Source: Candidatus Methanomethylicia archaeon (GTDB taxonomy: Archaea > Thermoproteota > Methanomethylicia > CALHIW01). Taken from it: a stretch of DNA of 64,000 nucleotides. Shown here one piece after another: positions 168 through 26,199 of the stretch; within the stretch, counting starts at the first letter, position 1; each line of letters begins with the position of its first letter. The DNA lies in contig JAWBQF010000010.1 in the NCBI GenBank assembly GCA_038845975.1, positions 1-64,000 of the forward strand. The letters run 5' to 3'. The notes under the pieces were generated by a model, which ran no database searches, had not been told where the DNA came from, and saw nothing but the letters and a program-made list of their open reading frames with translations. The translations under genes were made by a program, and so were the position numbers.

Positions 168-261
168 TAAAGATGTTAGATAAAATTTATTTAAGTATAC
201 TATTAAGATAAATAGGGGACACCATAAAATATTAGAACAAAAATTCAATTGCAAGATTTAG

Positions 262-374
262 TGGGGCCGCGGGGATTTGAACCCCGGACCATGCGGGCCC
301 TAGCTAATATAAGTTCAAGCCGCACATTCTAAACCAAGCTGAACTACGGCTTAGTGTACAGTTAACTGTACCCC
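262..374 (-). tRNA. tRNA-Pro(UGG) with two non-canonical introns: 3/4 (351-371, 21 nt) and 35/36 (300-315, 16 nt)
   Basis: Spliced form is GGG|GCCG UA GUUC AGCUUGGUUUA GAAU G UGCGG CUUG|GGC CCGCA UGGUC CGGGG UUCAAAU CCCCG CGGCCCC A. Intron 1 has a full BHB (GG-GGUG-GGG / CACU-AAG-CC). Intron 2 has a central helix GGCU/AGCU. Short variable arm; CCA not encoded. Confidence 0.85.
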
Positions 375-1227
375 ACCCCTTCAGCCCCTAAAATTAATTA
401 AAACTGGATTTATATATTTTATTCCAATGATGCTATGTCCAATTTTGTTTACTATAAATCATTTTGAAAACTTTCATTTCTATACCTCTTCTAATAACCT
501 TAGTTATTAAACGTTTTTCTATGAATCTATTTGAAAACTCTTAAGTGATTTGACTGATTGACTTAAATAGTAAGGTTTCAGGCGAGTTCAGAAATAGCAA
601 AGTAGGACATAGAGTATTCTTCGGGAGGAAACTATGATTTCAACATAATAGCAGAAAACTTAGCTACATGAAACATAATATACAAAGCTTCACTAATGTT
701 TTGAAAGTTTTCTATATGCTCTTTATATTACTCAGTATGATTAGACGTTTACATAAATGATCTATATAGCCTTAATATTCTAGTTAAATAATATACTTAA
801 ACTCTTAGGATTACTAGCAAACTACTACTGCTAACTTTGGATGCTAGATGGAGTTCCGATTTAATTAAGCATCATTATTATAATCTCTTCTTTAATTAGT
901 TATAGGTCTAATTGTAGTGTTTCTTTAAGCTCATCTCTTCACTTCATAATCTTAATATATAGTTTTAGGTCTATAAATACTGTTTAAGTTTCCTATTTTA
1001 GCGACTTGGTTTATCATGCTCTCTAAAATTGTGAAGTGTTGATAGGGACTTAGGATAGTATTTAAATTAAGGTAATTGTATACAATGTAGGAAGCTATAA
1101 AGCAATGATTGAATGTTGTTTAAACTGCTTTTATTCTATATTCATCGAAATCTTTAAGGAAAGAAATATATAATGGCTTCAAGTAGTAGTTTTCTAACTT
1201 ATAGGGATATTGATTAAGTTATAAGTA

Positions 1228-23363: not shown

Positions 23364-25250
23364 TTGAACATTGATGTATTGATCATAACTGAAAAACCAT
23401 CAGTTGCAAGAGTATTTGCTGAAATACTCTCTAAGAGTAAATATCGAATTATGTATAGTCATAACATTGAATACTATGTTTTTAATTTAAATAGTGAAGT
23501 ATGGGCTTCAATAGGTCTTAAAGGACATATTTTAAACTACGATTTTCCAAGTAAGTTTAATAAATGGACAGAAGTAAATCCACGTGATCTATTCTTCATA
23601 GACCCACTGCACGTCATCGAGAAAGGATGCTATAGATATGTTGAAGTCCTAAAAGATATTGGTAGAAACATACGTTACGCTCTACTAGCTCTTGATGCTG
23701 ATTCTGAAGGGGAAAGTATAGCGTTTGAAGTTCTTGAAATATTGAAGCAAATCAATAAGTACTTTGAAGCTAAAAGATTATGGTTTTCAGCAGTTACAGA
23801 AAGGGATATTTTGCATGCATTAAACAATCCTCAAGAGCCTAATAGACTTCTAGCTGAGAAATGCTTTACAAGAATGATTATTGACTTAACAATAGGATCA
23901 GCATTTACAAGACTTCTTACATTAAGCGTTAGAAAAACACTTCGTAACGCTCTTCCTAAAGGACATTTTCTAAGCTTTGGACCATGTCAAACGCCTACAT
24001 TATGGTTTGTAGTTCAAAGGGAAATTCAAAGAGAGAAATTTAAAGCTAGAAAGTTCTATAGGATTACATGTACGCTTAAAGCTAATGGATTAGTATTTGA
24101 AGCTGAACATTATAAAGGAAAAATAGATAGTAAAGAGGAAGCTGAGAAAATATATAGTAAAATTAAGAATGCATTGAAAGCCTATACTAGAAGCTTTAAA
24201 TCAAACATAAAAACTAAGAATCCTCCAACACCATTAAACACCATAGAGTTTGAAAGTAGAGTAAGTAAATTTCTAAACATTAGATCTAAAACAGCCCTAG
24301 ACATAGCAGAGAAACTCTACCAGTATGGATATATTAGCTATCCTAGAACAGAAACCGAAATATATGGACCAACAATAAACTTAAAAGAAATCGTTCAAAT
24401 GCTTTCAAAAAATATAAACTACAGTAAGTATGCTGAAAACCTAATTCTTAAAGGATTTAAGCCTACGAGAGGGGGGAGAGATGATAAAGCCCATCCGCCA
24501 ATACATCCAACAAGAATAGCTTATGAACAAGTTATTACTGAAGAATTTTCAAGAAATGCTTGGAGAATATATGACTTCATAGCTAGACATTTCCTAGCAA
24601 CACTAAGCAAACCAGCTTTAATTGAATCTCAACGTTTAGAGCTGGAAATTGAAGAGGAGAAATTTATAGCTGAAGGATTAAAAATTATTGAGGAAAACTA
24701 TCTCGAAATATACTTCTACGAGAAAATCAGTGAGAAAAAAATACCAAAACTAAACACTGGAGAGGAAGTTGAAGTATTGAAAATAGAATTGAAAGAAGGA
24801 GAAACATCACCACCACCATATCTCTCAGAGGCAGAACTGATAAAGCTAATGGAAGCTAAAGGAATTGGAACTGATGCAACAATTCAAGACCACATATATA
24901 CAAACATTAAGAGAGGATACTTCTACATTGAAAATAAACGATGTATACCAACACCTTTAGGCATACAGTTAATAAAGGCATTAGACAGCATAATACCTGA
25001 AGCCATTAGACCGGAAGTAAGAGCCTTTATTGAAACACAGATATTACAAGTTGCAAAGGGAATTAAGACAAGAAGCGAAGTAGTGGAGTTTGCTAGAAAA
25101 ACATTTCTAAACTACTATGATAGACTTGAAAAGAACATAAGTGAAATATCGAAAGCTCTAGCTCCACTAGTAAGGAAAAGCATACTTCTTACAAATATTA
25201 AGAGGAAAACTAGAAAATTTAAACGGGCCCGAGGGGATTTGAACCCCTGA
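23364..25250 (+). CDS. topA: Type IA DNA topoisomerase (archaeal topo I/III)
   Basis: ITEKPSVA, GLKGHI, DADSEGE, SFGPCQTPTL, GYISYPRTET, AHPPIHPT, GIGTDAT. Confidence 0.95.
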   Translation: MNIDVLIITEKPSVARVFAEILSKSKYRIMYSHNIEYYVFNLNSEVWASIGLKGHILNYDFPSKFNKWTEVNPRDLFFIDPLHVIEKGCYRYVEVLKDIGRNIRYALLALDADSEGESIAFEVLEILKQINKYFEAKRLWFSAVTERDILHALNNPQEPNRLLAEKCFTRMIIDLTIGSAFTRLLTLSVRKTLRNALPKGHFLSFGPCQTPTLWFVVQREIQREKFKARKFYRITCTLKANGLVFEAEHYKGKIDSKEEAEKIYSKIKNALKAYTRSFKSNIKTKNPPTPLNTIEFESRVSKFLNIRSKTALDIAEKLYQYGYISYPRTETEIYGPTINLKEIVQMLSKNINYSKYAENLILKGFKPTRGGRDDKAHPPIHPTRIAYEQVITEEFSRNAWRIYDFIARHFLATLSKPALIESQRLELEIEEEKFIAEGLKIIEENYLEIYFYEKISEKKIPKLNTGEEVEVLKIELKEGETSPPPYLSEAELIKLMEAKGIGTDATIQDHIYTNIKRGYFYIENKRCIPTPLGIQLIKALDSIIPEAIRPEVRAFIETQILQVAKGIKTRSEVVEFARKTFLNYYDRLEKNISEISKALAPLVRKSILLTNIKRKTRKFKRARGDLNP

Positions 25251-25319
25251 CCACCGGCTTTCTTCCTCATCCGCTAGCCAACCTGAGGCCGGCGCGCTTC
25301 CATACTACGCTACGGGCCC
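25224..25319 (-). tRNA. tRNA-Arg, most likely CCG, with two 11-nt introns (25274-25284 at 34/35; 25260-25270 at 37/38)
   Basis: GGGCCCG acceptor stem, A20, G73, short variable arm. The 29-nt anticodon-loop region gives an Arg anticodon only if two segments are removed. The first intron has helix GGCC/GGCU with 3-nt bulges. Confidence 0.75.
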
Positions 25320-25407: not shown

Positions 25408-26199
25408 ATGGAAAATATTGTTAACAGCTTAATACAGCTTGGCTTAAGTAGAGGAGAGGCTGAAACCTACCTACTAATCATTAAAGAATATAGAGTTTCT
25501 ACTGATTTCTTAAAACTGAAGTTAGGGGTTAGGAGTCAGGACGTTGAGGAAATTCTAAAATTACTAACAGTAAAGGGATTTATTAAGCCAGTATCTGAAC
25601 TATCTAATACCTATGAGGCTACAGAACCTGAAACTGCTATATCAAGACTAGTATTAAATCGTATTAAAGATCTTGAAGATAAAATCAGTCAGATTAGAAA
25701 TCTCGGATTGAAAATTAAGGATGATATCCTTAAAACGTATAAGGAGGCTAAATACGGTATTAGAGCTGAACAACTTATACAACCTCTAGCCAGTCTTAGT
25801 GAAATGGAGATTCACACATTTAAAATTATTTCTGAAGCTGAAAGAAATATTGATATTTTTACTTTAACTTTTGGATGGTATGATAAAGTTCGTGAAGCAT
25901 TAATCTCATGTCTTGAGAGAAGAGTTACCATTAGAGTTTTAATGAAAATAGCTGATGAAACTTCAAGAAGAATAGCTCTAGAACTTAAAGAATTAGGAGC
26001 TAGCGTTAAAATACTAGCTGAAGAATGGCATCCATTAAGAGGAACAATAGCTGACAATAAGAGAATGGTATTTTTAATATGGGCTTCTAAAGGTGAGAAA
26101 CCTATATACTATTTACCACACTACTCAACTAATGAGGGAATTCTTGAAATATTTAAAGAATTCTTTAATAAAAAGTGGAATGAAGCAAAGCCATTATAG
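25408..26199 (+). CDS. TrmB-family transcriptional regulator
   Basis: LGLSRGEAETY wHTH, coiled linker, PLD-like C-terminal domain (VTIRVL, IADNK). Confidence 0.85.
   Translation: MENIVNSLIQLGLSRGEAETYLLIIKEYRVSTDFLKLKLGVRSQDVEEILKLLTVKGFIKPVSELSNTYEATEPETAISRLVLNRIKDLEDKISQIRNLGLKIKDDILKTYKEAKYGIRAEQLIQPLASLSEMEIHTFKIISEAERNIDIFTLTFGWYDKVREALISCLERRVTIRVLMKIADETSRRIALELKELGASVKILAEEWHPLRGTIADNKRMVFLIWASKGEKPIYYLPHYSTNEGILEIFKEFFNKKWNEAKPL

Follow-up and report, generated by a model that had tools for sequence, protein, structure and literature searches.

A putative tRNA-Arg(CCG) gene with two 11-nt introns and a 3-nt internal exon in a Methanomethylicia archaeon

A tRNA gene in the genome of a Candidatus Methanomethylicia archaeon from hot springs appears to have its anticodon interrupted by an intron. 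The gene lies in a stretch of 64,000 nucleotides (nt), called the window here, which belongs to contig C10 of a genome of 2.77 Mb (33.7% G+C, 76 contigs, 93% complete). It occupies window positions 25224–25319, is read on the minus strand from 25319 to 25224, and is 96 nt long. The gene very probably encodes tRNA-Arg(CCG) and carries two 11-nt introns of the protein-spliced archaeal kind, one between tRNA positions 34 and 35 (34/35) and one between positions 37 and 38 (37/38), leaving C35-G36-G37 as the middle exon. A preliminary description had proposed this assembly of an Arg anticodon across two 11-nt introns and a 3-nt exon, and the computational tests of motif geometry, a paralogue, the isoacceptor inventory, sequence variants, conservation, and splicing enzymes agree with it.

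The tRNA gene and its anticodon loop

The Rfam tRNA model RF00005 matched the gene with 57.4 bits (gathering score, 29) over model positions 1–71, and the alignment placed a 25-nt insertion in the anticodon loop, after the loop start. The anticodon-stem strands CCGGC and GCCGG enclose 29 nt, where a loop of 7 nt is expected, and the enclosed string is the same as that given in the preliminary description. The acceptor, D, and T arms are regular, the variable loop has 5 nt (UGGUC), and the CCA end is not encoded. Arg tRNAs are identified by A20, a short variable loop, and G73. The gene has A20 (by hand numbering of the D loop) and the discriminator G73 in addition to its 5-nt variable loop; the traits on which Arg identity was earlier assigned to the body can be read from the sequence, and four Arg paralogues share the body. 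ARAGORN labeled the gene Pro(agg) when no intron was allowed and Leu(caa) when it placed a 22-nt intron; the tRNA body fits neither label.

The 29-nt string was divided in 148 ways, comprising 140 double excisions in which each intron had at least 9 nt and eight single excisions. Each parse was scored for a helix of four base pairs, both strands of which stop 2 nt short of the respective cut (5′ or 3′), and for outer and inner helices. Each of the eight single excisions, which remove 22 nt, leads to a Ser or Leu anticodon (AGA, CGA, CAA, or CAG) and forms 0–3 of the 4 central-helix pairs, in line with the earlier claim that no such excision yields an Arg anticodon. The top-ranked of all parses is the double excision CUC/AGGUUGGCUAG/CGG/AUGAGGAAGAA/A (cuts are marked by slashes), as had been proposed, which gives the loop CUCCGGA, the anticodon CCG, and exons of 35, 3, and 36 nt. 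A mature loop of this sequence, which combines U33 and an Arg anticodon with a purine at position 37, would be obtained only through such a double splice.

On the minus strand, exon 1 (25285–25319; placed by the Rfam alignment and the parse enumeration) comprises the 5′ strand of the acceptor stem, the D arm, the stem strand CCGGC, and C32, U33, and C34, and thus ends on the first anticodon base. It is followed by the putative intron 1, AGGUUGGCUAG (25274–25284), between positions 34 and 35, and by exon 2, CGG (25271–25273), which holds anticodon positions 35 and 36 plus G37 and is invariant in all seven double-insert variants described below. The putative intron 2, AUGAGGAAGAA (25260–25270), occupies the canonical 37/38 position; both introns were placed by parse geometry. 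Exon 3 (25224–25259) consists of A38, the stem strand GCCGG, the variable loop, the T arm, the 3′ strand of the acceptor stem, and G73, according to the Rfam alignment and the sequence.

The register of intron 1 is narrowly constrained. A one-base shift that produces the anticodon GCG retains none of the four central pairs and has no outer helix, so the earlier statement that it fits the motif worse holds. Shifts of −1, +1, and +2 leave 0–1 pairs, and a shift of −2 gives 4 pairs without the outer helix and a loop without U33. When the 29 nt were shuffled 3000 times, some two-intron parse scored as high as that of the gene in 72 cases, and in one of the 3000 such a parse also had an Arg anticodon together with U33 and a purine at position 37. 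A CCUCA/UGAGG helix between the loop and intron 2, seen by eye, was rejected: it is not kept in the GCG-type variants, and its cut-site spacing is wrong. ARAGORN places introns arbitrarily when it is given computed spliced forms, and its output on these was not used as evidence.

Geometry of the splice motifs

In intron 1, the central helix is complete (4/4): GGCU (25276–25279) pairs with GGCC at positions 29–32 (G29–C32, 25287–25290), and two outer pairs are formed by C27 and C28 with G36 and G37. A 3-nt bulge (A,G/C) contains the 3′ site, and the 5′ site falls 2 nt into a 7-nt loop. In intron 2, after removal of intron 1, GAAG (25262–25265) pairs with C32, U33, C34, and C35 (CUCC/GAAG, 3/4), the bulge is A,A/A38, and the 7-pair outer helix is the anticodon stem. 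Both introns are built alike, from five loop nucleotides, four helix nucleotides, and two bulge nucleotides. Neither has the inner helix of the strict form, and the 5′ site of each falls in a 7-nt loop; the predicted motifs of the gene are therefore of the relaxed bulge-helix-loop form rather than the strict bulge-helix-bulge form. The relaxed form has been named hBH or BHL (PMC3239211, PMC3241643).

The preliminary description had given intron 1 a GGCC/GGCU helix, an outer CC/GG pair, and 3-nt bulges. The helix and the outer pairs stand; the 5′ bulge does not, since this site falls in a 7-nt hairpin loop with no inner helix. For intron 2, it had described a CUCC/GAAG helix with one mismatch that forms after intron 1 is removed, and this was recovered: two of the four pairs are available before the removal and three after it.

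The Arg isoacceptor set of the window genome

Five genes of the window genome share the Arg body, and their D loop, AGUAUGGAA, is identical. Besides the window gene, they encode Arg(UCG) on contig C3 without an intron, Arg(UCU) on C50 with a 12-nt canonical intron, Arg(CCU) on C30 (25302–25387), also with a 12-nt canonical intron, and a GCG-type tRNA on C21 (2801–2904). The 5′ half of the window gene is 94% identical to the intron-less UCG gene, and over its full length, BLAST identity is 80% to the UCU gene, 78% to the CCU gene, and 86% to the GCG-type gene. The canonical introns of the UCU and CCU genes end in GAAGAA/A, as does intron 2 of the window gene.

The C21 gene has the same double-insert layout. 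Its top-ranked parse, of 372, is CUG/19 nt/CGG/AUGAGGAAGAA/A, which gives the loop CUGCGGA and the anticodon GCG. Its intron 1 has the GGCC/GGCU helix and the outer pairs as in the window gene plus a 4-pair inner helix, and thus is predicted to form a complete, strict bulge-helix-bulge motif. Intron 1 of the window gene is, as judged from sequence, homologous to this intron.

Five Arg anticodons are expected in archaea. A scan of the window genome for a 5-base-pair stem, a contiguous Arg loop, and a T loop detected no CCG, GCG, or ACG loop elsewhere and found only the UCG gene; in this contiguous-loop scan, CCG is otherwise absent from the genome, which answers the inventory check suggested earlier. 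The CCG gene of the window and the GCG gene on C21 complete the expected set of five. In 895 open reading frames (ORFs) of at least 300 codons, CGU and CGC together make up 8.7% of the Arg codons; therefore, the GCG gene, which has the same layout, must be spliced.

Variants in relatives and origin of the 34/35 intron

A 25-nt pattern of the D arm and stem identified two loci in a congener (genome G001; contigs C43 and C90) and 28 metagenome loci. Together with the window genome, the congener and the hot-spring metagenomes yielded seven distinct double-insert sequences, three of the CCG type (the window gene and loci L046 and L048) and four of the GCG type (C21/L060, G001/L034, L043/L055, and L047/L057). 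The two-intron parse ranks top in all seven. The introns of the CCG-type relatives have 13 and 12 nt, and the predicted combination of 11 and 11 nt is particular to the window genome. Between the window gene and L046 and L048, the exons are identical at 73 of 74 positions and the flanks at 81–83%; the introns differ in 5–6 columns, and their endings GGCUAG/ and GA(A/G)GAA/ are kept. In one relative (L043 and L048, whose contig ids share a metagenome prefix), the GCG- and CCG-type exons are identical except at position 34, and L047 is a GCG-type variant with a different T stem. These two patterns suggest recent duplication or gene conversion between the CCG and GCG genes.

Among 62 genomes of the class, the pattern of the 34/35 intron matched tRNA genes only in the window genome and its congener; the pattern was built from the intron of this lineage, and 34/35 introns of a different sequence would be missed. 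The eight remaining matches lie in non-tRNA sequence with no T loop or other tRNA features nearby, and a reversed-pattern control also gave eight. A contiguous CUSCGG pattern combined with a T loop, which requires one T-loop form and misses some genes, matched in 48 of the 62 genomes, with one control match. The genes matched either lack an intron or carry an insert directly after CGG (37/38), and the only match in the window genome and its congener is the stem of a Pro(CGG)-like gene. One gene of the second kind, from genome G010, reads CUCCGG/13 nt/A with a 4/4 helix by eye. We infer that CCG and GCG genes were ancestrally intron-less in the class or had the 37/38 intron only. The 34/35 intron would then look like a gain within the lineage of the window genome.

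Splicing enzymes and predicted order of splicing

The window genome encodes two paralogues of the splicing endonuclease (EndA), each with both Pfam domains, and an RtcB ligase. The protein on contig C1 (183 aa) matches the catalytic subunit of the Aeropyrum pernix heterotetramer (3p1z_B, E = 4.9e-51) and also the Sulfurisphaera tokodaii and Pyrobaculum aerophilum enzymes (E = 1e-42 to 1e-40). In its alignment to the A. pernix subunit, which has no gap across the Crenarchaea-specific loop, K39 and K41 face K44 and R46, respectively; this loop and K44 are needed for cutting non-canonical and loop-type introns, according to PMC3241643. The C1 protein is, by this alignment, a crenarchaeal-type catalytic subunit with the specificity-loop lysine. 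The nearest structures to the second paralogue (180 aa, on C30) are those of Methanopyrus kandleri and Methanocaldococcus jannaschii, and the A. pernix beta subunit is matched only weakly (E = 8.5e-4). The gene of this paralogue (C30, 24213–24473) and the tRNA-Arg(CCU) gene share a strand, with the former approximately 830 nt upstream.

In the mechanism that we propose, an endonuclease composed of the C1 catalytic subunit plus the second paralogue would cut the sites of both introns, presumably at the predicted bonds, and RtcB would join the exon ends. Intron 1 would be excised and its ends ligated before intron 2 is removed. The motif of intron 1 uses positions 27–28 (with 36–37) and 29–32 (with the intron), and that of intron 2 uses positions 27–31 (with 39–43) and 32–35 (with the intron). 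Both motifs need positions 27–32 and therefore cannot coexist in one molecule. In addition, intron 1 interrupts the helix of intron 2 between its third and fourth positions, and this helix is complete only when C35 stands beside C34. Because the motifs are mutually exclusive and the helix of intron 2 needs the joined C34-C35, intron 1 is probably removed first, an order that we hold with somewhat more than even confidence. If both introns were cut together, the middle exon would be set free as a 3-nt piece retained by two base pairs.

The 3′ end of intron 1 belongs to a family of endings, (U)UGGCUAG or AGCUAG, which occurs in Arg(CCG) and Arg(GCG) and may also be present at 35/36 in a Pro-like tRNA of the window. 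As a joint proposition, which we advance tentatively and regard as doubtful in its entirety, C35-G36-G37 would be the shortest internal tRNA exon reported, the endonuclease would have to act twice with ligation between the two rounds because the two motifs are mutually exclusive and the 3-nt piece would be lost on a simultaneous cut, and the UGGCUAG/AGCUAG intron family would have recently spread to the anticodons of an uncultured Methanomethylicia lineage from hot springs.

Alternative readings

The introns may be as described while their order is not fixed, with either or intron 2 coming first; this is possible but rather unlikely. The intron 1 motif has the same score (4/4 pairs, two outer pairs) with or without intron 2, and in the precursor, UUGGC of intron 1 can pair with the stem strand GCCGG (six pairs) and frame the sites of intron 2, with two of the four central pairs formed. 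However, the canonical intron 2 helix improves to 3/4 pairs upon removal of intron 1, the minimum-energy fold of the intermediate arm without intron 1 shows the canonical stem, the 3-nt bulge, and the helix, and the substitute outer helix is shorter in the C21 GCG paralogue (five pairs instead of six). A single 22-nt intron leading to a Leu (CAG/CAA) or Ser (CGA/AGA) anticodon would agree with the Leu(caa) call that ARAGORN makes when introns are allowed (the call is Pro(agg) when they are not), and its canonical parse allows an outer helix of seven pairs. The variable arm is long in Leu and Ser tRNAs, and the 5-nt variable loop misfits them; moreover, the body is paralogous to that of four Arg tRNAs, and the canonical excision forms just two of the four central pairs. 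We consider this reading very improbable. Equally hard to credit is a placement of intron 1 one base upstream (33/34), which would give a legal Arg(GCG) anticodon with U33 and G37: beyond its loss of all central pairs and the outer helix, if the paralogue were shifted likewise, its anticodon would be ACG and CCG would be left unserved, and the full motif of the paralogue fixes the 34/35 register.

The gene could also be a decaying copy or pseudogene whose insert stays unspliced, with CGG read by the UCG tRNA. CGG is indeed rare (1.2% of the Arg codons, 238 of 397,552 codons in total), and the predicted folds do not favor the motif. Against this, the exons are nearly unchanged between orthologues whose flanks have diverged, all three CCG-type variants preserve the motif portions of both introns, and the GCG paralogue of the same layout is the sole GCG source in a genome in which CGU and CGC make up the share of Arg codons given above. 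Loss of function is thus improbable, and we retain the two-intron tRNA-Arg(CCG) as the preferred reading.

Several observations weigh against this two-intron gene or its function. The geometry score is our own and ad hoc, and the intron 2 helix contains one C·A mismatch. No pair of either motif has changed on both sides among the seven variants, so covariation is lacking in that set. Minimum-energy folding did not recover the intron 1 motif; in the isolated arm, the motif reaches −5.8 kcal/mol, whereas a rival 7-base-pair hairpin reaches −11.8 kcal/mol, and the four arms examined fold no better than shuffled sequences (z = −0.5 to +0.9). Since CGG is rare and can possibly be read by the UCG tRNA through wobble, the CCG gene could be dispensable. 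The genome is 93% complete; therefore, the remainder could contain an intact CCG gene. Finally, a search of sequencing runs for the locus gave 20 runs, all DNA or "DNA?" and none RNA.

Comparison with known tRNAs

Multi-intron tRNAs are known from Thermoproteales (PMC4090602, PMC4033280) and other Crenarchaeota; one is tRNA-Pro(UGG) of Pyrobaculum islandicum, which has introns at 25/26, 37/38, and 56/57 (PMC4090602). In some archaeal tRNAs, the introns are so close that the second motif forms only after the first has been removed (tRNAscan-SE 2.0, PMC8450103). The window gene resembles these crenarchaeal tRNAs in its predicted protein-spliced introns, whose motifs are of the strict or relaxed bulge-helix-bulge kind, in the combination of canonical and non-canonical positions, and in the predicted dependence of one motif on removal of the other. 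It differs from the cited cases in that its extra intron lies inside the anticodon (34/35), in its 3-nt exon, and in its host, a member of the Methanomethylicia class rather than of Thermoproteales.

The pre-tRNA-Pro(GGG) of ARMAN-2 has adjacent introns at 53/54 and 59/60 (PMC3239211) and thus also has a single loop interrupted by two closely spaced introns with a very short middle exon. However, these lie in the T loop, enclose a 6-nt exon, have strict motifs, and are processed by an epsilon2 endonuclease, whereas in the window gene, the introns lie in the anticodon loop and the exon has 3 nt. CCG and GCG genes of the same class (for example, those of G010 and locus L004) have an orthologous function, the same stem, and the loop CUSCGGA, and many carry a 37/38 intron ending in GAGAA/A; unlike the window gene, they have a contiguous anticodon with no 34/35 intron.

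A mini-helix of the Cenarchaeum symbiosum pre-tRNA-Tyr is a bulge-helix-loop (hBH) substrate of the A. pernix endonuclease (PMC3241643). As in the predicted motifs of the window gene, a loop holds one of its splice sites and a 3-nt bulge the other, and the lysine needed for cutting is also present in the enzyme of the window genome. The C. symbiosum substrate has a single intron and its cleavage has been assayed, whereas the window gene has two and is known from sequence. The tri-split tRNA-Gly of Caldivirga maquilingensis (PMC4390854) likewise has its anticodon region as a separate short piece and relies on the same motif and enzyme; its pieces are separate transcripts from separate genes, unlike the parts of the window gene, which lie in one 96-nt gene. 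In the literature consulted and the tRNAscan-SE 2.0 supplement, we found neither an intron within an anticodon nor a 3-nt tRNA exon, although the slash notation for intron positions cannot be searched and a prior report is possible. The mechanism and the motif are already known; the unusual features of the gene are the placement of an intron within the anticodon, its 3-nt exon, and its host lineage.

Neighboring features and other tRNA genes

On the plus strand, a 628-aa ORF (window positions 23364–25250) with Pfam Topoisom_bac (E = 4e-111) and Toprim domains overlaps the 3′ end of the opposite-strand tRNA gene by 27 nt before its first stop. On the other side, a 263-aa ORF (25408–26199, plus strand), in which a TrmB-type regulator domain scores weakly (27.4 bits; cut-off, 25.6), is divergent from the tRNA gene. 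The 88-nt spacer between them is rich in A+T, and TATA-like strings occur upstream of the tRNA gene.

A second tRNA gene of the window (255–400, minus strand) was called Ser(tga) by ARAGORN, but its body is Pro-like; the acceptor stem, T arm, and variable loop match those of a Pro(GGG)-type gene on C24. Its anticodon loop contains a 16-nt insert with two competing parses: an intron at 35/36 with a GGCU/AGCU helix (4/4) would give UGG, and a canonical 37/38 intron with three of four central pairs, seven outer pairs, and three inner pairs would give UGA. The 3′ end of the insert (UUAGCUAG; UUGGCUAG in the congener) is similar to the end of Arg intron 1, and the acceptor stem is split near positions 3/4 by another insert, of approximately 35 nt. 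The orthologue in the congener is 95% identical and does not discriminate between the two parses.

The tRNA set of the window genome is very rich in introns (contigs C21, C24, C28, C34, C43, C50, and C55). ARAGORN reported 25 tRNA genes and Rfam 29 above its cut-off, and both missed multi-intron genes. Four tRNA genes were found only by a T-loop scan (C24, 18426–18584; C43, 353–511; C21, 28437–28595; and C50, 8066–8224). In a CAU tRNA gene (C21, 27367–27477), inserts flank the anticodon on both sides and, by eye, leave a middle exon of approximately 5–7 nt. Both Ala tRNA genes have an insert near 45/46, three Val tRNA genes have an insert in the D arm, and a Ser(UGA) gene (C28, 11945) has an insert near 29/30 in addition to a canonical intron. 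A tRNA-like gene on C57 (547–656), called Pro(agg) by ARAGORN, has an uninterrupted 7-nt loop, CUAGGGA (anticodon AGG, A34), and a long insert after the anticodon stem.

Implications

Annotation of the ARAGORN kind would make this genome seem to lack tRNA-Arg(CCG) and tRNA-Arg(GCG) and would distort inferences on decoding and completeness for such metagenome-assembled genomes. The window gene would offer a compact natural substrate for studying how the endonuclease and RtcB handle mutually exclusive motifs and a 3-nt exon. A heavy load of non-canonical tRNA introns, described mainly for Thermoproteales in the literature available to us, extends to a lineage of the Methanomethylicia class. Since the lineage-specific pattern located the 34/35 intron in no other genus among the 62 class genomes, and otherwise the intron occurred in metagenomic relatives of this genus, the case would also date one intron gain.

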